A DNA stretch of 64,000 nucleotides from Escherichia coli. GTDB lineage: Bacteria > Pseudomonadota > Gammaproteobacteria > Enterobacterales > Enterobacteriaceae. The notes beneath the pieces were generated by a model, which was not told the DNA's origin, searched no databases, and worked only from the letters and a program-made list of their open reading frames with translations. Positions 48,994-58,192 of the stretch are shown piece after piece; within the stretch, counting starts at the first letter, position 1; each line of letters opens with the position of its first letter. The stretch lies in the NCBI RefSeq assembly GCF_024223415.1, contig NZ_CP100500.1; one strand, written 5' to 3'. Position numbers and translations under genes: made by a program.

Positions 48994-49163
48994 AATGGCT
49001 CACTCAAGCTTGCTCACGATTGATTCCAGTAACAAACCGTATTGTGTAATTATTTCTATAGCAGATCGCTATATAGGCTTGTATACATCGAATAATTTGA
49101 AAATCAAAGAGATAGGTAGATTTTCACTCGAAAGTAGTATTACGTGTAAGTGAGGAGTAATTA

Positions 49164-49177
49164 TTGTTCGGTATCAA
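49164..49177 (-). promoter_or_regulatory. FNR-type half-site pair in dmsA promoter
   Basis: TTGTT-CGGT-ATCAA (consensus TTGAT-N4-ATCAA) ~170 bp upstream of dmsA ATG. Confidence 0.5.
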
Positions 49178-49289
49178 AGGGAGACAAAAAAAGCGCCCGC
49201 AGGAGATTTAACGGTACTTACTCCTCTTGCTGATTTCCTTATTTTTCAATAAGTAAACAAAAACAAGGGGAGCAAATTATCACAAATAA

Positions 49290-50285
49290 TTACTGGTCGA
49301 TGGACAGTTTATGGACACTTTCAGCCAGCGGATTAAAGCTGATCGCATCCTGTAAAAAGTCCGGTGAAAAATGCGCATACGTCATCGTTTGCTGAATCGT
49401 GGCGTGACCCAGGATCCTCTGCAACGTGACGATGTTCCCGCCGTTCATCATGAAATGCGTGGCGAACGTGTGCCGCATGACATGCGTGGCCTGCCCTTTG
49501 GGTAAGTCGGGCTTCACCTCCTGAAGGATCTCCCTGAAACTGAGATAATCAACCTGATATAACAGGCCGGTCCGGCGGGTTTTAATTAACGGCACAACGG
49601 AATCAGCTACAGGAACCGAGCGCGATTTCCCGTTCTTTGTGTTAAAGAACGTCACCCTGTTACCCACGATGTGTTCCCCGCGAAGCGTTGACGCCTCTTT
49701 CCATCTGGCCCCGGTCGAAAGGCACAGAATGGCAATGCGTCGTGCATCACCCTCAAGCCGTTTCAGAAGGCGATCAATCTCGTCATCTGAAAGAAAGGCC
49801 ATTTCTGTATTCTGAACCTTGAGTTTACGTATTCCGCGCACAGGGTTTTCGTTATGATAAACCTCCGCGTCAATTAACAACGAAAACATCGCAGATAAGG
49901 CGCACAGGTCGCGATTGATACTGGACGGCATCAGTCCCGCCTGCAACTTATCCGAGCGATACTCAATCATGAATTTTCGTGTCATCTGGCTGGCGCGCGG
50001 GTCCCCCATTTCACGTATCACCTTCTCCAGTCTGGTTCTGTAGGTATCACCATATGCCTGATTACGACCATCAAGCATCCACCACACCTCAATCAGTTCT
50101 GATAACCGCCGTTGATCGGCGGGCCTTGCCTGCCACGGGTTATTGTGGAAATTCTGAAGAACGTATCTTTCGAATTCCTGCGCCTTTGATTTCAGGGTGA
50201 AAATCTTACGAATCCGCCTTCCTCCCGCCCCCTGAGGCCTTACATCAACCTGATAACGTCCGTCTTTGAGTTGCTTAATCGACAT
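49290..50285 (-). CDS. int: P2-family tyrosine integrase
   Basis: ORF track 49290..50294; likely start MSIKQLKDGRY behind GGAGG; catalytic region HVMRHTFATHFMMNGGNI...ILGHATIQQTMTYAHF resembles P2 Int. Confidence 0.9.
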   Translation of the reverse strand: MSIKQLKDGRYQVDVRPQGAGGRRIRKIFTLKSKAQEFERYVLQNFHNNPWQARPADQRRLSELIEVWWMLDGRNQAYGDTYRTRLEKVIREMGDPRASQMTRKFMIEYRSDKLQAGLMPSSINRDLCALSAMFSLLIDAEVYHNENPVRGIRKLKVQNTEMAFLSDDEIDRLLKRLEGDARRIAILCLSTGARWKEASTLRGEHIVGNRVTFFNTKNGKSRSVPVADSVVPLIKTRRTGLLYQVDYLSFREILQEVKPDLPKGQATHVMRHTFATHFMMNGGNIVTLQRILGHATIQQTMTYAHFSPDFLQDAISFNPLAESVHKLSIDQ

Positions 50286-50354
50286 GATCAGCACCTCCGA
50301 CGGATAAACCTGTTAACCCCTGCTTACTGAACGCCGCCCGTTCAATATACAGCG

Positions 50355-50696
50355 TCAGCCAGCATTGCGGCCTGATTGGGGTGATTTTTGGGTATTGCGG
50401 GTTGAAACCTGATCGTCCTCCGACTGCGTGGAGCCATCAAGAGAGAGAGCCGGGGCGATCTGACCGGCAACAGGTAGCGTCTTATCTTTGATTAACCAGA
50501 ACATATATTTTTCAAACCGATCCACTTGAAGGACGGCCTCAACAATCTTTGCTCTGGCGATCTTTTGCCCTGACTCATAATTCCTGACAGTTGCCAGAGA
50601 TAACCCTGTAATATCAGCAAATTGCTTTTGAGTTAGCCCTTCCGTCTTGCGTATCAAACGCAACTTTTTCGCATAGTCTATTGACAAGATACTCAT
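50355..50696 (-). CDS. C: P2 C-type immunity repressor (HTH)
   Basis: 113 aa; HTH LTQKQFADITGLSLATVRNYESG; C-terminal GQIAPAL...SPQSG resembles my recollection of P2 C. Confidence 0.8.
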   Translation of the reverse strand: MSILSIDYAKKLRLIRKTEGLTQKQFADITGLSLATVRNYESGQKIARAKIVEAVLQVDRFEKYMFWLIKDKTLPVAGQIAPALSLDGSTQSEDDQVSTRNTQKSPQSGRNAG

Positions 50697-50799: not shown

Positions 50800-51321
50800 A
50801 TGCGGGAGATTATTGCCGACAAAGAGTTATCTGGCGCTCAACCGGTTCAGGATGATGGCGCGGACAATGAATTCATTGAAGCTGCCAACGACAACGAACA
50901 CCTGGAAACCAAAACCAGACCGTCCTACAAAAAGGGCGCAACCCTACGACTGGACGGCCCAGTCGCAGGACTTGTGTCACTGGAAAAAGGGGCTGCCTAT
51001 CTGGGGGTAACAAAATCTGCGCTACGCGCCGCCATTCAGCGCGGGCAGATGCCGGGTCACAAAACGCGCTCAAATCCCGAAGATGAAAAGTCAGACGGTA
51101 CATGGTGGTTTAACGCCAAAGCCTGGGACGAACTAGCCGACGAACTACTGGAGTGCGAACCGCCAGAGTGGCACAACTGGAAAAGCTACTGGACGTACGA
51201 CCGCAAGAAAAGAAAGTTTTCACCGGCAAACAAGGAGGACTGCCAGACCGTTAAAGGTAAGCAGGTTTACTCCCCCAGAGTTTCAAAACTGGAGCAACTC
51301 AAAAACAACCAGCCCGGCTAA
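50800..51321 (+). CDS. cox: Cox-like excisionase/regulator with N-terminal extension
   Basis: 173 aa, RBS AGAGGA; central HTH LEKGAAYLGVTKSALRAAIQRGQMP and GTWWFNAKAWDELADELLE resemble P2 Cox, which is ~91 aa. Confidence 0.65.
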   Translation: MREIIADKELSGAQPVQDDGADNEFIEAANDNEHLETKTRPSYKKGATLRLDGPVAGLVSLEKGAAYLGVTKSALRAAIQRGQMPGHKTRSNPEDEKSDGTWWFNAKAWDELADELLECEPPEWHNWKSYWTYDRKKRKFSPANKEDCQTVKGKQVYSPRVSKLEQLKNNQPG

Positions 51322-51329
51322 ACACGAAA

Positions 51330-51536
51330 ATGACCAGCAATATCATCAGCGCCATTCTGACACTTGTTTTTATTGAGATAGGCGTAATAGCGATCTATTT
51401 GTTTCGTAAGTTAACGGGACATGAAGAACGCTTTATTGAACTCAGCATTGAATATATCGCCGCTTATACCAAAGGACTTTTCCCGGCAGCTATTGGGGCG
51501 ATGTTTATAGCGTTTGTTATCTGGTTTATCGGGTGA
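51330..51536 (+). CDS. Small hypothetical membrane protein (2 predicted TM)
   Basis: 68 aa, hydrophobic segments ISAILTLVFIEIGVIAIYLF and AAIGAMFIAFVIWFIG. Confidence 0.45.
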   Translation: MTSNIISAILTLVFIEIGVIAIYLFRKLTGHEERFIELSIEYIAAYTKGLFPAAIGAMFIAFVIWFIG

Positions 51537-51787
51537 GAAACCTGATAAACCACAACTACTGCAATGAGGGTAATTATGTGTGGCATGGACAAATTGGACC
51601 TTATGTTAATTGTAATACTATCAATTAACTTCGGTTACCTCTTAAGCGGCGTAATTCTCATGTGCGGAGGCAAACGAAAATGAACCAGCAGTCCGCAAAA
51701 CGTGAACACAATGCGATGCGATTTAATCGCAAATATTTTGAGTTCGCCGCTATGCCGGAATAATTAAATCTGTACAGAGTCTTTAAC

Positions 51788-52126
51788 ATGAAACAGCAAC
51801 GTAATTCACGCTTTCGTAATGGTGCTGAACGTCACGCTAACCGTTTCGCTACCAGTGCATCACGTAGTAACTCCCGCTACAGCCTGAGCGAGACACACGC
51901 AACACCGGGCGGTCATGCTGTAAAACAGACTGGTCAACACACCTGGCTGATTGAGCAGGCCGGACTCGTGATCCACAGATGCCACCGCAATCCGTTTACC
52001 GGAAACCGCATTTTTGCACTGAGCAGCGGCGACAATCAGTTCGGACAGGATTTCACACTGCACGAAGCCTTGCGAACTGCCGACCGCTTAATCGAGGGGC
52101 GCAGCTTTCAGCATACCGACTACTAA
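51788..52126 (+). CDS. Hypothetical early-operon protein
   Basis: 112 aa ORF co-oriented with early operon. Confidence 0.5.
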   Translation: MKQQRNSRFRNGAERHANRFATSASRSNSRYSLSETHATPGGHAVKQTGQHTWLIEQAGLVIHRCHRNPFTGNRIFALSSGDNQFGQDFTLHEALRTADRLIEGRSFQHTDY

Positions 52127-52164
52127 GGCAAAAGGAGTCTTAATAAGACAGAAGAGGCAGCAAG

Positions 52165-52407
52165 ATGAAAAGAGCCTATAAAGAACTCATTAACCACGCG
52201 CTTCAGAATTACCATTACGGACTTACAAGCCGTGGCACTAACGGTGACGCTGTTTCACTTGCAGCACTGACTACAGCAATCAAGGGCCTGACCTGTTGCG
52301 CCTTTGGTTCCGGAGATAATGAAGCTCTGACGGAATTACAGGCCATTAATAAAGACCTGTCTGAAGGAAACGTAATAACCCCCTTTGTAATTCAGGAGGA
52401 AGCATGA
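52165..52407 (+). CDS. Hypothetical early-operon protein
   Basis: 80 aa, RBS-like GGCAGCAAG upstream. Confidence 0.5.
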   Translation: MKRAYKELINHALQNYHYGLTSRGTNGDAVSLAALTTAIKGLTCCAFGSGDNEALTELQAINKDLSEGNVITPFVIQEEA

Positions 52408-52529
52408 GCGTATTTATGTCATGGTTAATTCTTATCCTTGCCATTATTTGCGCTGTGGGGATTATGCGGGTAATTAACAGCATTAACACCATTGAATCGT
52501 TATTTACTGGCGATAAGCGCCGTAAATAA
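52404..52529 (+). CDS. Small hydrophobic peptide (41 aa, 1 TM), hypothetical
   Basis: ATGA overlap with preceding stop, strong RBS AGGAGG; MSVFMSWLILILAIICAVGIMRVINSINTIESLFTGDKRRK; below ORF-track size cutoff. Confidence 0.4.
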   Translation: MSVFMSWLILILAIICAVGIMRVINSINTIESLFTGDKRRK

Positions 52530-52609
52530 ACAGGCGTTTAACACCAGAAACAACCAGAAACATCCGCTCACGCGGAGGGGTTGACCCGCTCAAAAAGGAG
52601 AAATCAGGA

Positions 52610-52903
52610 ATGCTTAATAATAAAAAAAACCGAATCATTGATAACAGTGAACAGGTCAACAAAATAATCGAAGGCACAAACAAATTAATTAAGAAAAAAA
52701 ACAAACTAAGCCGTGAATTAATGGAACATCCGGAAGAAATATTATTAGCCATGATGCACCAGACAGAAGCGATAGCCATCGCCCTTGCCGTGCAGGCGCT
52801 TTCTGAGTTCCGGGAAGAAAACATCAGGCTGGCTCAGGAGCTGAAAAACCTCAGACGTCAGCTTCAGAGCACTGAGGCTGGCACGTCATCACGAATGCAC
52901 TGA
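52610..52903 (+). CDS. Hypothetical protein, Lys-rich N-terminus then helical C-terminus
   Basis: 97 aa, RBS AAAGGAG; 5' half markedly AT-rich compared with neighbours. Confidence 0.55.
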   Translation: MLNNKKNRIIDNSEQVNKIIEGTNKLIKKKNKLSRELMEHPEEILLAMMHQTEAIAIALAVQALSEFREENIRLAQELKNLRRQLQSTEAGTSSRMH

Positions 52904-52913
52904 GGGCCACACC

Positions 52914-53123
52914 ATGACTGCAATTCTGAGAAGACGCAATAAAACGCTTTTTACCGATACATCCGGGATGGAATACGAAGTGGAAAGCAGTGTCATAGCC
53001 ACCACCACCCGATGCCCGGCAGGTGACGAACTGATTTACGTCCACCTGACGGACGGGTCACAGATAACCGTCCTGACAGAGTCATGGCGCGAACTCGAGA
53101 TAATAAGCGAGGTAAGAACATGA
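52914..53123 (+). CDS. Hypothetical early-operon protein
   Basis: 69 aa. Confidence 0.45.
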   Translation: MTAILRRRNKTLFTDTSGMEYEVESSVIATTTRCPAGDELIYVHLTDGSQITVLTESWRELEIISEVRT

Positions 53124-53332
53124 GCAGCAAACACGATACCAACGCACGCAGACCAGGCAAAGAGGCGCGTCACCATATCGCCGTAATGCGCAACCTGCTT
53201 ATGAGTGAAATCGACGATTTTGTGGCAGGCCTGGGGCAACCGGGCGAACCAGCAACACCAGGCCAGATACACAGGGAATTACGCCGCCGCGTGGAAAACG
53301 TCGTGGATTACGTCATAAACCCGAACGACTGA
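53120..53332 (+). CDS. Hypothetical early-operon protein
   Basis: ORF track 53084..53332; preferred start MSSKHDTNARRPGK with ATGA overlap and GAGG RBS. Confidence 0.45.
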   Translation: MSSKHDTNARRPGKEARHHIAVMRNLLMSEIDDFVAGLGQPGEPATPGQIHRELRRRVENVVDYVINPND

Positions 53333-53371
53333 CGGGAACATGGCGAGCGTCAGATGACACACGCAGGGCAC

Positions 53372-53854
53372 TTATCGGGACAAACCGATCGTAATCGCAG
53401 CCATCATCTTTTCAGCGAAAGAGAGAGATTCACGATGACTGATATTCAGAGACATACAGGCTTTGTTGTACGCCACATTTTCCATGCATTCCAGGACAGG
53501 AGAGTCATGCATCTCAAGCTCTGGAAGGCGTGCCAGCAGAGCTTCCGTACTGAGGAGGGCGCTTTTGGTAATCAACTCATTGTAGCGATGGGCATGCTCA
53601 CTCGCCGCCTGCGCACGTTGCCCGAAACGACATATGAAATTACAGGCTCCGAGAACCACCACCACTGCCCCCAGCACCCAGCCGAAATGCCAGCCGGCTA
53701 CGATGAACGCACCCGCCGCAAGGATCAAAATGTTGATGATCGCATCAAGGCGACGATTGAACACCGCCGCGATGCGCTCCAGCCAGTAGCTGTACCAGAG
53801 ACGGAACATGACCTCATCCCGTTCTCTCGATTTTTTACGTTGGTTGTTTTGCAT
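53372..53854 (-). CDS. Membrane protein encoded antisense to the early operon (candidate moron)
   Basis: 160 aa, RBS GAGGG; two clear TM helices (AIINILILAAGAFIVAGW, GWVLGAVVVVLGACNFI); the overlapping + strand ORF 53354..53989 is low-complexity. Confidence 0.55.
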   Translation of the reverse strand: MQNNQRKKSRERDEVMFRLWYSYWLERIAAVFNRRLDAIINILILAAGAFIVAGWHFGWVLGAVVVVLGACNFICRFGQRAQAASEHAHRYNELITKSALLSTEALLARLPELEMHDSPVLECMENVAYNKACMSLNISHRESLSFAEKMMAAITIGLSR

Positions 53855-54088
53855 GGTGTTTTATCCCTCATCGTCATCGCTCTGCCCCTAATCAGCGCAG
53901 AGTGCAGGGTAACCTGGCTCGTGGAATTTTTGCAGCCAGACATCTTTACCCCCGGGCGTGTTGAACAAAGTGTCCGCCAGATCCACTGAACGGCGGATTC
54001 ATCAATGCTAACACGCCCTTCTTTTCCGGTTGAAGGCGAAAAAACCGGACCATTACCCCGACACAAAACAGAACAACGGAGAACAACT

Positions 54089-54643
54089 ATGCCCGCACTT
54101 AAACCTATGGGTGTATCAGGTGTACCACCGAAGCATGTCAGAGCCTGGACACAACAGGAAGATGCTCTACTGGTCGGTTTATACCCCTCCCACACCGTAC
54201 CAGAACTGACAAAACACTTTCAGAGAACCGGGCCAGCAATACGAAGCCGCATCCGTCTTTTGCTCTCTCAGGGGGTTATCCACACCAAACAACCCCCCCT
54301 GAATACAAAAGAACTCAACACGCTCATCAGGAATCGCCACACAAAAACCATCCGGGAACTCGCGAATGAACTGGGGCGCTCGACATCCACGGTGGGACTG
54401 AACCTGAGAAAAAGAGGGTACCGGTTCAGGAAATACGGGGAACTCCACCACAGAGCCAGATACAGCGATCACCTGGTGGAGTTGGTAACTGAACTGCGCG
54501 ATGAACAGGGGATGACATTCAGCGAAATCAGAAAGTACATCCGGGACACGACCGGGATATCCCTTAAAAGATGGGTCCTCGCCCGGCTTTACGCACGATA
54601 TACCGCCGCTGACACCGTGCTTTGCGAACTGCTACCGGACTGA
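54089..54643 (+). CDS. Putative DNA-binding protein with three HTH-like repeats
   Basis: ORF track 54005..54643; start moved to MPALKPMGVSG behind GGAGAA; repeated helix-turn-helix-like segments (..TVPELTKHFQRTGPAIRSRIRLL.., ..TIRELANELGRSTSTVGLNLRKRG.., ..TFSEIRKYIRDTTGISLKRW..). Confidence 0.55.
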   Translation: MPALKPMGVSGVPPKHVRAWTQQEDALLVGLYPSHTVPELTKHFQRTGPAIRSRIRLLLSQGVIHTKQPPLNTKELNTLIRNRHTKTIRELANELGRSTSTVGLNLRKRGYRFRKYGELHHRARYSDHLVELVTELRDEQGMTFSEIRKYIRDTTGISLKRWVLARLYARYTAADTVLCELLPD

Positions 54644-54966
54644 GTAACCACTATGCACACACAAAAAAACCGCTTGCCATGCCGCAATCAGTCAGGTTAC
54701 ATTTCCGCTGCACCTCATAAAACGGGTGCCGGGATTGCAACCCCCGCTGACAAACGAAGCGCACAACCGCGCCAGCGGTTTTTTTGTGCGTACCGTATCG
54801 CCACGTCTTTTTCGCACCAGAATTATGGTGGGGCGTACGGGGCCGACTTCGGTCGGGCCGGTTTCTTCGTTTGCCGGTGGTTGCAACCCTGTACGTCTCG
54901 CCACCCAGAATTGCAACCTCTGGATGGTGAGTATCCAAAAACTCACAAACGAAGAGGCCAAACACC

Positions 54967-55194
54967 ATGGCAAACCGCAAACAACAGCGCGCATACGCTG
55001 CGCGTCGTCACATCCAGACTGAAATCAACCGCAGACTTTCCCGCGCATTCCGCGTCGCGCATATCATGCACATCAATATGCTGCATGAGCGCAGCCACGC
55101 ACTGTCAAACATGTATTCCGCCGCTGTATTCAGCTACCTGGCGGATGACCTGCGCAAGCTGCAGGACCTCATTAACCAGCACTACCACCACTAA
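54967..55194 (+). CDS. Hypothetical early-operon protein
   Basis: 75 aa, basic, RBS GAAGAGG. Confidence 0.5.
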   Translation: MANRKQQRAYAARRHIQTEINRRLSRAFRVAHIMHINMLHERSHALSNMYSAAVFSYLADDLRKLQDLINQHYHH

Positions 55195-55262
55195 TCAACA
55201 TCCCGGAGCCATCCCGCCCCCGTACGCGGGAGGCTTCCGCACGTCCGTTTCCGGAGGTTCTC

Positions 55263-55676
55263 ATGAAGAGCGTTAAGGGACTTTCAGATATTCAGGATTT
55301 TTTTAACTGGATGTGGGCGGTGGATCCACGCCTCGCTTCCCGTCTCAATGACCTGCATGACTATTACCGCCGCGCCTGTAAACAGGCCGCCAGCAGCGCC
55401 ACCACATACGGGAATTTTTCCTTCACCGTTGATGACCGTTACCGCGTGGATGTCAGAGACCAGAACCACAGCATGGTGCTGGGCCTGTTCCACATCAACG
55501 GGTGCGACAGCAGCGTTATCAGCTGGTCATCGTCAGAAATGGTGCTCGTTCTGGAAATGACCACCCACAGCGTGGTCGTGAAAGGGATTAAAACAGCAGA
55601 AGACTTTATCGCTGAATACCAGCGCCTTCTTGTGCTGTACCGGGCTGCATTTGAGAAGGCAACAGCAGGGGAGTAA
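55263..55676 (+). CDS. Hypothetical protein immediately upstream of A
   Basis: 137 aa, RBS GGAGG. Confidence 0.55.
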   Translation: MKSVKGLSDIQDFFNWMWAVDPRLASRLNDLHDYYRRACKQAASSATTYGNFSFTVDDRYRVDVRDQNHSMVLGLFHINGCDSSVISWSSSEMVLVLEMTTHSVVVKGIKTAEDFIAEYQRLLVLYRAAFEKATAGE

Positions 55677-55681
55677 GCGGA

Positions 55682-58192
55682 ATGAGCCATCACCACACGC
55701 ACCTGGCGTACCCGTGGAACGCCCCGCTGCCGGTTATTGATCCTGAGACATTCGGCAGAGCATTACCGCAGAAGCCAACCGCATTACAACGGGCAATCCG
55801 TGACTACCTCACCGAAGACATTCGCACTGAGGCCCGGCTGGATGAAGAAACCGTGGCCTTCCTGACAACCACGGACAAAGGTAAGCAAATTAATTCACAC
55901 CTTCACCGGGACGAAGAGCGGCAGATAAGGCTGGATAAGCTGGCACGACACAGACGCGAAAATCCGCCAACGGCGGTATCGGAGGCGATAGCCGAACTTC
56001 GCACCCTGCCCTCGTTTCTTGCCAGTGTGTTGATCCGTGATCTGGCACGACTGAACCGGAAACAGCAAAGTGCCCGCAGTGAAGGTGTAAAAAACAACAG
56101 CGCATACGTGGCCGATAATTTCGTTCGCCGTGGACTGCGTGCGCGCCTGAAACGTATTGAAAGGGTTAACGACCGCTTTGCAACGCCGGCATTCAAAACC
56201 ACCGTCGTGCGCCATCGCCTTGAAGAACTGCTCACACTGCCGCAACTCACCCGTGACGAAATCCAGCGCATCGCCACACTGACAGCCCAGGCATTCGCCG
56301 CAGAATTTGAACGCATATGTGATGAAGTTCTTGAACGGACAGGCAAGGATAATGACAGCCCGGTTATCTGGCTGCTGGCCTACCAGAAGGTGGCACGCAC
56401 AGCCTTAATTCTGGGCGTGGTCCCGCCATACTGGCCGGAACTCGAAATCAGGCACAACCGACGCACACCGCCGGACCCTGAACGGGTTCCGGGTGCGGTA
56501 CTGCGCATCACCTGCGCGACCTGGTGGAACAACCAGTTACGCCACGTCGCCGATCTCTGGCGGGAGGAGTTACTGCGCGCCGCCGGCAGAGTGTCACGTA
56601 AACAATCCCCCTATATCAGCCATGAGTCACTACTGGAGTTCCGCGAGAAGCGCCAGCGCACCCGTGACTTTCTCAAAAGCTGGGATATTGAAAACGAAGA
56701 CGGCGAGCGCCTGAGTCTGGAGGACGTGTACTGGGCTGGCCTGGGTAATCCACGCAACCGCCGCAATGAAATGATGGTCTGCGTCAGAGGGATGGAGATG
56801 GTGGCCGAATTACGGGCTGACGTCGCATTCTTCATCACAGTAACCACCCCTTCCCGCTTTCACAGCGTGAACGAGAACGGCAGCCTGAACCCGAAATACA
56901 ACGGTGCCACAGTACGAGATGCCAGTGATTATCTGGTTTACGACTTCTTCGCAGCCGTAAGAAAAAAAATAAAAAAAGAGGGGCTGGGCTGGTACGGCGT
57001 GCGAACCGCTGAGCCACACCATGACGGCACGCCACACTGGCATATGCTGGTATTCACTTCCCCGGAGAACGCAGAGCGCATCATCGAAATTATGCGCGAA
57101 GCAGCAATTAAATCAGATCGCCACGAACTGGGGGACGATATTTCACCGCGCTTTAAATGCGAGAAGATAGACCCGGAAAAAGGCACACCGGCAAGCTATA
57201 TCGCAACCTATATCGGTAAGAACCTGGACGCCAGCGCTTTCCACAACAATGATCCGAAAACCGGAAAACCTTACGTTGATGAGGAATCCGGGAAAACCAT
57301 GGCGGAAACCGTGGAGAACGCCATTGCCTGGGCAAGCCTTCACCGCATCCGTCAGTTCCAGTTTTTCGGCATTCCGCCCCGCCAGGTATGGCGTGAACTC
57401 CGCCGCCTTGCAAGCCAGATGGAGCGCAACCCGGCATCACCGAAGCACCTCGATCATGACGATATTGACGCCATTATGGCTGCCGCAGATGTGGGATGTT
57501 TTGCCACCTACATCATGAAACAGGGTGGTGTGCTCATTCCGCGCAACCAGTATCTGGTCCGCACCGCATACGAAACCGCAGACGAAGCCAACGACTACGG
57601 TGAATTCCCTCAACGTATCTACGGAATCTGCGCCCCGTCGCTCGGAGAGCGGTACACCATATGCACCCATCCGGACGAGTGGAAACTGGTTAAAAAAGAA
57701 ACAACACCAGACAACCGCACGGGCGAGGGTTTTGACCTTCAGGGCGACCCCGTCGCCCCTTGGACTCGTGGCAATAACTGTCCCCGGGATGAAAAAACAG
57801 ACAATCACGGACCAGAAAACAGGCAGGACCCCGGACGACTGACGCTTCCCGAAGAGAACCTGGAAAGCTGGCTGAATACGTTAAGCAGGGGCGATCGGAG
57901 AAAACTGCGTAATCAGATTAAAAATCAGCCGTCGGGCGCAAAAACCGGACAAAACGACACCACACCGGCATCTGACACCCCTGTAAGGGTGGGGATTGTC
58001 GTGCCTGCGGATACCGCGACGGACACGCAAATCGCCCGCGAACTTGATGCGCTGGGTGTGCAGTTGCCTGACGCGGCCATCATCTCCGTGCGTAACGGTG
58101 CCCGTGTGCGTCTGGATAACGGGGGAACAGCGTACTGGGATGAGTCAGCCCGTCACATCATCACAGAGCAGCCAGTGGAGGCGGGAGCATGA
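55682..58192 (+). CDS. A: P2 gpA-like rolling-circle replication initiator
   Basis: 836 aa; HUH-type motif TPHWHMLVF and paired tyrosines YIATYIGKN; larger than P2 A (~761 aa as I recall). Confidence 0.9.
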   Translation: MSHHHTHLAYPWNAPLPVIDPETFGRALPQKPTALQRAIRDYLTEDIRTEARLDEETVAFLTTTDKGKQINSHLHRDEERQIRLDKLARHRRENPPTAVSEAIAELRTLPSFLASVLIRDLARLNRKQQSARSEGVKNNSAYVADNFVRRGLRARLKRIERVNDRFATPAFKTTVVRHRLEELLTLPQLTRDEIQRIATLTAQAFAAEFERICDEVLERTGKDNDSPVIWLLAYQKVARTALILGVVPPYWPELEIRHNRRTPPDPERVPGAVLRITCATWWNNQLRHVADLWREELLRAAGRVSRKQSPYISHESLLEFREKRQRTRDFLKSWDIENEDGERLSLEDVYWAGLGNPRNRRNEMMVCVRGMEMVAELRADVAFFITVTTPSRFHSVNENGSLNPKYNGATVRDASDYLVYDFFAAVRKKIKKEGLGWYGVRTAEPHHDGTPHWHMLVFTSPENAERIIEIMREAAIKSDRHELGDDISPRFKCEKIDPEKGTPASYIATYIGKNLDASAFHNNDPKTGKPYVDEESGKTMAETVENAIAWASLHRIRQFQFFGIPPRQVWRELRRLASQMERNPASPKHLDHDDIDAIMAAADVGCFATYIMKQGGVLIPRNQYLVRTAYETADEANDYGEFPQRIYGICAPSLGERYTICTHPDEWKLVKKETTPDNRTGEGFDLQGDPVAPWTRGNNCPRDEKTDNHGPENRQDPGRLTLPEENLESWLNTLSRGDRRKLRNQIKNQPSGAKTGQNDTTPASDTPVRVGIVVPADTATDTQIARELDALGVQLPDAAIISVRNGARVRLDNGGTAYWDESARHIITEQPVEAGA

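Follow-up and report, generated by a model that had tools for sequence, protein, structure and literature searches.

What does the small, basic protein encoded at 54089-54643 in the early operon of a P2-like prophage do, and is it a counterpart of gpB, the helicase-loading replication protein whose gene likewise lies between cox and A in P2-type early operons? Temperate phages carry many accessory genes in their early regions that nobody has studied, and this gene, as one of them, will surprise no specialist. The window considered here (the whole 64,000-nucleotide stretch of Escherichia coli DNA that was analysed) contains a P88-type P2-like prophage (Xuanwuvirus, Peduoviridae) integrated beside dmsA. 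Its Cox-family gene is followed by small early genes without assigned function, by the gene of interest, referred to below as tri-HTH after its three predicted helix-turn-helix (HTH) domains, and then by a gpA-type gene. With such neighbours the gene belongs to the early lytic operon, as the original prediction had it. The setting is as follows:

49290-50294, reverse strand: integrase
50355-50696, reverse strand: C-type repressor
50800-51321, forward strand: Cox-family protein
54077-54080, forward strand: Shine-Dalgarno GGAG, 8 nt before the tri-HTH ATG, from direct sequence reading
54089-54643, forward strand: tri-HTH CDS (184 aa, 21.2 kDa, pI 10.3; WP_001111137.1; PHROG 323)
55682-58192, forward strand: gpA-type replication endonuclease

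The Cox-family protein has 173 aa, about twice the size of P2 Cox (276-nt gene, about 91 aa), and the Pfam Phage_Cox match covers only its residues 56-129, with N- and C-terminal extensions outside it.

The reading frame runs from an ATG at 54089 to a TGA at 54641-54643, as read from the sequence. RefSeq lists exactly the same CDS in E. coli DG341-1 (WP_001111137.1) under the label 'hypothetical protein'; in other strains, copies with almost no differences go by 'DNA-binding protein', and relatives carry either that name or 'SANT/Myb-like DNA-binding domain-containing protein'. The start is backed by the RefSeq annotation and by the N-termini of orthologues, and a longer 212-aa reading from 54005 is not borne out, as M-x-LKPMG is where every orthologue begins. 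Purifying selection acts on the gene, with a dN/dS of 0.31 against an 85%-identical copy in Citrobacter phage Shae_phiSM and of 0.23-0.34 against copies at 40-52% identity. Given the RefSeq CDS and this selection (dN/dS ~0.3), the reading frame is a real gene. Already known are the presence of the family in PHROGs and the RefSeq names 'DNA-binding' or 'SANT/Myb-like'; a literature search on the accession, the family, 'D5-like' regulators and phage GcrA-like tandem HTH proteins found no functional data.

Structure prediction bears out the HTH content that had been read from the sequence. Two AlphaFold2 runs, one on a 16-sequence alignment (pLDDT 82.3, pTM 0.53) and one on a more diverse 24-sequence alignment (pLDDT 91.4, pTM 0.67), give the same secondary structure: one three-helix bundle at residues 22-61, another at 73-108, a third at 127-169, and a closing helix at 173-181. 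The pTM of 0.67 hints that the three domains may stand in a fixed array. The chain can be divided into these segments, all on the forward strand:

54089-54139, residues 1-17: N-terminal arm, Pro/Gly-rich and conserved (LKPMGxPGxxPxH), predicted non-helical (pLDDT 50-75)
54140-54274, residues 18-62: HTH domain 1, a Myb/SANT-type (GcrA-DBD-like) three-helix unit with a WTxxED start
54299-54418, residues 71-110: HTH domain 2, the domain 1 unit again in a more divergent copy
54419-54460, residues 111-124: basic linker with an RKxGD/E motif
54461-54598, residues 125-170: HTH domain 3, a generic three-helix HTH (predicted helices 127-138, 144-155 and 161-169)
54599-54640, residues 171-184: acidic C-terminal helix and tail, conserved TAxDxxxxELLPD, net charge -3, helix 173-181

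Among the 24 orthologues compared (31-83% identity), domain 1 keeps W20, D25 and R46 invariant, the linker K115 and G117, and the start of domain 3 D127. The subfamily of the query carries a 6-residue insertion in the alignment, in the turn preceding helix 3 of domain 3. Positive charge is concentrated mostly in domain 2 and the linker (111-124), and the last 14 residues are acidic. The Myb/SANT feature of a three-helix bundle with the third helix as recognition helix is present in the AlphaFold2 models and, judged by fold, the protein is presumably DNA-binding. SANT-like three-helix bundles can bind proteins instead of DNA, as SANT does in CoREST.

The original prediction had spoken of three HTH-like repeats, of which the three HTH domains stand but the threefold repetition says too much, only domains 1 and 2 being demonstrably homologous. 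A 47-aa unit HMM, made solely from unrelated poly-repeat proteins, matches tri-HTH residues 19-58 (E 9e-15) and 74-102 (E 1e-7) and gives no match to domain 3. Similarly, hhalign aligns domain 1 with domain 2 in register (E 3.5e-4), and the alignment of neither domain with domain 3 is significant. Since both comparisons pair domains 1 and 2 and leave out domain 3, the true repeats, as far as sequence comparison can tell, are domains 1 and 2 only, and domain 3 is a distinct HTH with no detectable sequence kinship to them. In orthologues, domain 3 matches the Pfam Sigma70_r4, AsnC-type and MarR models, and in relatives it is sigma-70 region 4, AsnC or XRE-like. Its profile found generic HTHs only in the PDB, and gave no support to a suspected likeness to the 'AKLT'-type HTH of HNH endonucleases.

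A profile search of 1.84 billion representatives returned 4084 relatives of the tri-HTH protein, from bacteria and phages. About 25 of these are full-length proteins of ~180 aa, and most others consist of 4-12 tandem copies of the ~47-aa unit (consensus PWTxxEDxxLxxLYPxxxxxEIAxxLGRSxxAVxxRAxxLGL). The poly-repeat relatives (P0020, P0023, P0025 and P0046 among them) have strong Pfam Myb matches, and P0025 alone matches GcrA. In P0020 (807 aa) the unit array is fused to a ResIII/Helicase_C helicase. A search for a described function of this poly-repeat Myb/GcrA-DBD-like family found none. Only the 180-aa family has domain 3 and the tail, since the poly-repeat relatives align solely to tri-HTH positions ~14-114.

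Within phages, the query matches the PHROG 323 HMM ('transcriptional regulator, D5-like') at E 1.9e-27, residues 5-151 falling on profile positions 82-230 of 319, and a Mu-like orthologue matches it over its full length at E 6e-58. Among the members of PHROG 323 are phage Mu gp9/E8 and Listeria phage B025 gp44, and the family shares with the query the Myb-like unit and a gene position in the phage early region. However, Mu gp9 has only 99 aa and aligns weakly with the query over one unit (BLASTP E 0.028); what the 184-aa form has beyond it is a second unit, a third HTH of another kind and conserved termini. Mu gp13, whose gene fills the equivalent slot behind gp12, was rejected as a truncated relative, as it is a Cys-rich peptide with no similarity.

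The query reaches no Pfam gathering threshold, and its Pfam and NCBIfam matches are to generic HTHs below threshold, the best in Pfam being HTH_24 (20.3 bits vs a gathering cut-off of 21.9). Weak Pfam matches to domain 2 (residues 76-103) are to HTH_24, HTH_11 and MarR. Pfam Myb (PF00249/PF13921) gives no match to the query at E <= 10; 11-12 of the 24 orthologues match Myb models at E <= 0.01 (best 1e-7 to 3e-9), and 15 of the 24 match Sigma70_r4. Pfam GcrA (PF07750) does not match the query and is absent from the 25 families matched most often, out of 35 that match any of the 24 orthologues. GcrA, a Caulobacter cell-cycle regulator (PDB 5yiu/5yiv), has one DNA-binding domain, whereas the query has three HTH domains, and no GcrA-type C-terminal domain interacting with sigma-70 (region 2) was found, the C-terminal half of the query being the third HTH and the 14-residue tail. 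From Myb R2R3/SANT proteins the query differs in that its domain 3 is not Myb-like and it stays below the Pfam threshold; it comes from a bacterial virus, and nothing points to recent common descent with eukaryotic Myb factors.

Among solved structures, the family profile matches Cbp2 (2lvs, a CRISPR-repeat-binding protein with two HTHs) at E 9e-5 across two units and the Mos1 transposase weakly (E 0.009), while a PDB sequence search with the single protein gave chance matches to designed proteins only. Foldseek on the PDB places Tc3, Mos1, Cbp2 and Pax paired domains at the top (best E 0.054, Tc3), and no solved structure matches the whole chain at E < 0.001. On viral models it retrieves many uncharacterised multi-HTH phage proteins and HTH parts of endonucleases. 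Like the query, Tc3, Mos1, Pax and Cbp2 have at least two HTHs per chain and a basic linker; they read an extended asymmetric site, but have two domains where the query has three. Cbp1 has three HTH domains. The DDE/D catalytic domain of Tc1/mariner transposases is absent from the 184 aa, as is any CRISPR context. The PHROG matches to the HNH endonuclease families phrog_1891 (E 7.5e-6) and phrog_59 (E 0.014) concern HTH parts only, and Pfam detects no HNH nuclease domain in the query. The PADLOC-DB defence models give no match at E <= 0.01 to the tri-HTH protein or to three of its neighbours.

Variation within the family is distributed unevenly. Mean pairwise identity was taken from two family alignments, A1 (closer) and A2 (diverse), and is highest in the N-terminal arm (0.73 in A1, 0.49 in A2), with the C-terminal tail (its motif also written TAxDxxxRELLP) at 0.72 and 0.44. 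Conservation is lowest in the third helices of the HTHs, and the putative recognition helix of domain 2 is the most variable of all (helix 3 identity 0.19 in A2). As the recognition helices vary most and the termini least, the tri-HTH alleles probably differ in their DNA target, and the termini would form an unchanging interface, either to a partner or for self-regulation.

The distribution of the gene is that of an accessory element. Most of it is present in 61 of 5426 complete E. coli genomes. All 25 P88-type loci with the gene hold it in the same slot, just upstream of an RNA module (isrK-C4, described below) that starts 10-13 nt past the gene in 24 of them and behind a 1.1 kb insert in the remaining one. 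Phage P88 itself has the isrK-C4 module and lacks the tri-HTH gene. In another P2-like lineage (L009, 5045-10069) the order is Dam methylase, tri-HTH, a PAPS-reductase-like gene and gpA, without the RNA module; the orthologue there overlaps both neighbours by 4 nt (ATGA), which suggests translational coupling, and a DNA-modification context is possible for this locus. Mu-like prophages carry full-length orthologues at 34-36% identity (tblastn) in their early region, between a gp12-like gene and GemA/Mor. In Mu itself the weakly similar gp9 is the only counterpart. Across the P88-type loci no correlation was seen between tri-HTH alleles and integrase, cox or gpA alleles. Since the slot neighbours differ among the P88-type, L009 and Mu-like loci, and P88 does without the gene, tri-HTH is a mobile accessory, mosaic gene of phage early regions, bound to no single neighbour.

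Taken with the structural analogues, these observations make it likely that the product is a single-chain three-HTH accessory DNA-binding protein of the early operon, acting as an early regulator or adaptor that the phage can do without. On the model of Myb R2R3, Tc3/Mos1/Pax and Cbp2, one chain would set the third helices of its HTHs into successive major grooves, and so might read one extended asymmetric DNA site, probably of about 25-35 bp, with no requirement for dimerisation. Its effect would fall on transcription or on another DNA transaction, and its role would be neither the helicase loading of P2 gpB nor part of the core replication machinery. A 'hypothetical protein' gains in this way a defensible description, as an early-operon product with three HTHs, two of them Myb/SANT-like units, and with gpB identity excluded. 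Present in P2-like and Mu-like phages, and having variable recognition helices and fixed termini, the protein is also a reasonable candidate for a host-directed factor; occurrence in gpA-type and transposition-type phages is compatible with such a role and no proof of it.

The immediate neighbourhood offers possible targets for a protein of this kind. The features on either side of the gene are:

53372-53854, reverse strand: 2-TM gene (160 aa), lying against the direction of the forward early operon
53855-54088: spacer (234 bp)
54650-55194, forward strand: antisense-RNA control module, directly 3' of the tri-HTH gene
54674-54703: promoter-like site just before isrK
54710-54785: isrK (Rfam, 61.9 bits), ending in a hairpin and a T-run
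54821-54908: C4 antisense RNA (Rfam, 79.3 bits)
54967-55194: 75-aa 'derepression' ORF (PF25738)

By eye, the 2-TM protein appears to have two hydrophobic segments that may span the membrane; it matches phrog_6315, with no match in Pfam or PADLOC, and its gene looks like a moron cassette. Within the RNA module, C4 positions 54864-54880 are complementary to 54744-54759 in isrK and also to 54946-54955, where the GAGG ribosome site of the derepression ORF lies. Both isrK and C4 score above the Rfam gathering thresholds in four related loci as well (L002, L004, L008 and L016). We take the module to be of the kind known from phage P1 immI and P4 immunity. With the replication gene A lying downstream of the isrK-C4 gate, a P2-type C/Cox switch appears to be combined here with RNA-based control of an anti-repressor-like gene.

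One alternative is therefore that tri-HTH is a local regulator, whose target is the divergent 2-TM gene or the isrK-C4 promoter ~30 nt past the tri-HTH stop. In keeping with this, the 2-TM and tri-HTH genes are divergent neighbours both here and in L008, between which they have diverged together (62% identity for 2-TM, 49% for tri-HTH), and the spacer retains several blocks conserved with L008. The spacing of isrK-C4 behind the gene is nearly constant, and the promoter-like site stands just ahead of isrK at 54710. However, the 2-TM gene precedes tri-HTH only in the query lineage and L008, most loci having neither it nor the shared spacer; P88 keeps isrK-C4 without tri-HTH, and L009 and the Mu-like phages keep tri-HTH without the RNA module. 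Moreover, across P88-type loci the tri-HTH protein falls to 50% identity while the DNA of the RNA module stays 82-100% identical, which is unlike a specific protein-operator pair. Obligatory pairing of tri-HTH with either the 2-TM gene or the RNA module is rejected by these counter-example loci, and local regulation as a whole is an unlikely account. Three conserved TGAAC/TGAAG pentamers noticed by eye in the spacer were discarded as operators, being too short and lying in a spacer that belongs to the 2-TM cassette; a consensus scan of the 234 bp upstream of tri-HTH for a sigma-70 promoter of its own found none.

A second alternative returns to the question of gpB. The protein might be a replication accessory that binds the origin or recruits the host helicase for the gpA rolling-circle initiator, replacing gpB. 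Its gene precedes gpA in Peduoviridae with zero to three genes between them, in L009 as part of the overlapping string from Dam methylase to gpA, and no gpB homologue was detected among the ORFs of the early operon (50800-55680), nearly all of which fall in PHROGs without known function. The tri-HTH protein is not itself that homologue: alignment of the A2 family profile with P2 gpB by hhalign gave a probability of 0.2% (E 0.36), and the gene differs from P2 B in its operon position and in being dispensable in its lineage. The original prediction was right to separate it from the P2 B gene, and none of the known P2/186 replication accessory proteins has come up as a clear homologue. Apart from this want of kinship with gpB, phage P88 and most relatives replicate without tri-HTH, and its alleles do not track those of gpA. 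Orthologues occur in both P2-like and Mu-like phages, the latter replicating by transposition without gpA, which argues against a role tied to a gpA-type origin. We regard a replication function as improbable.

Equally improbable as it stands, if of wider consequence, is a GcrA-style hijacking of the host, in which an allele-specific tri-HTH array would sit on particular DNA sites, possibly marked by Dam methylation, and the termini would recruit or block a conserved host machine, with RNA polymerase sigma-70 or a replication or repair factor as candidates. Hints in this direction are that the two unrelated phage groups carrying the gene share only the host, that the termini are more conserved than the recognition helices, that a Dam methylase gene abuts the L009 orthologue, and that the unit is GcrA-DBD-like. 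If true, it would amount to an early host-takeover device common to temperate P2-like and Mu-like phages.

Finally, it is very hard to credit that the protein is a leftover, domesticated or in decay and functionless by itself, of the DNA-binding part of a homing endonuclease or transposase, for although its PHROG matches reach the DNA-binding parts of HNH families, its viral fold matches include endonucleases, its closest solved multi-domain analogues are the transposase DNA-binding domains of Tc3 and Mos1 and its distribution is patchy, the orthologues keep length, termini and synteny constant down to 31-39% identity, the gene is under purifying selection, no nuclease or transposase remnant adjoins it, and no frameshifted nuclease remnant is visible in the window.

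Two further features, one in the prophage and one next to it, deserve mention beside the accessory regulator or adaptor proposed here. A 207-aa ORF (54653-55276, forward strand) spans isrK, C4 and the derepression ORF in another frame and has no Pfam match; an equivalent 205-aa ORF is called as a gene in related loci (L004, 6547-7164), with a weak Pfam Phage_ASH match. The 207-aa ORF is probably spurious, a reading of RNA-coding DNA that is itself strongly conserved. Immediately beyond the prophage, at its integrase end, the Rfam sRNA STnc130 lies at 49084-49218 on the forward strand (125.8 bits) and, being situated between dmsA and the integrase gene, is near the attachment site.
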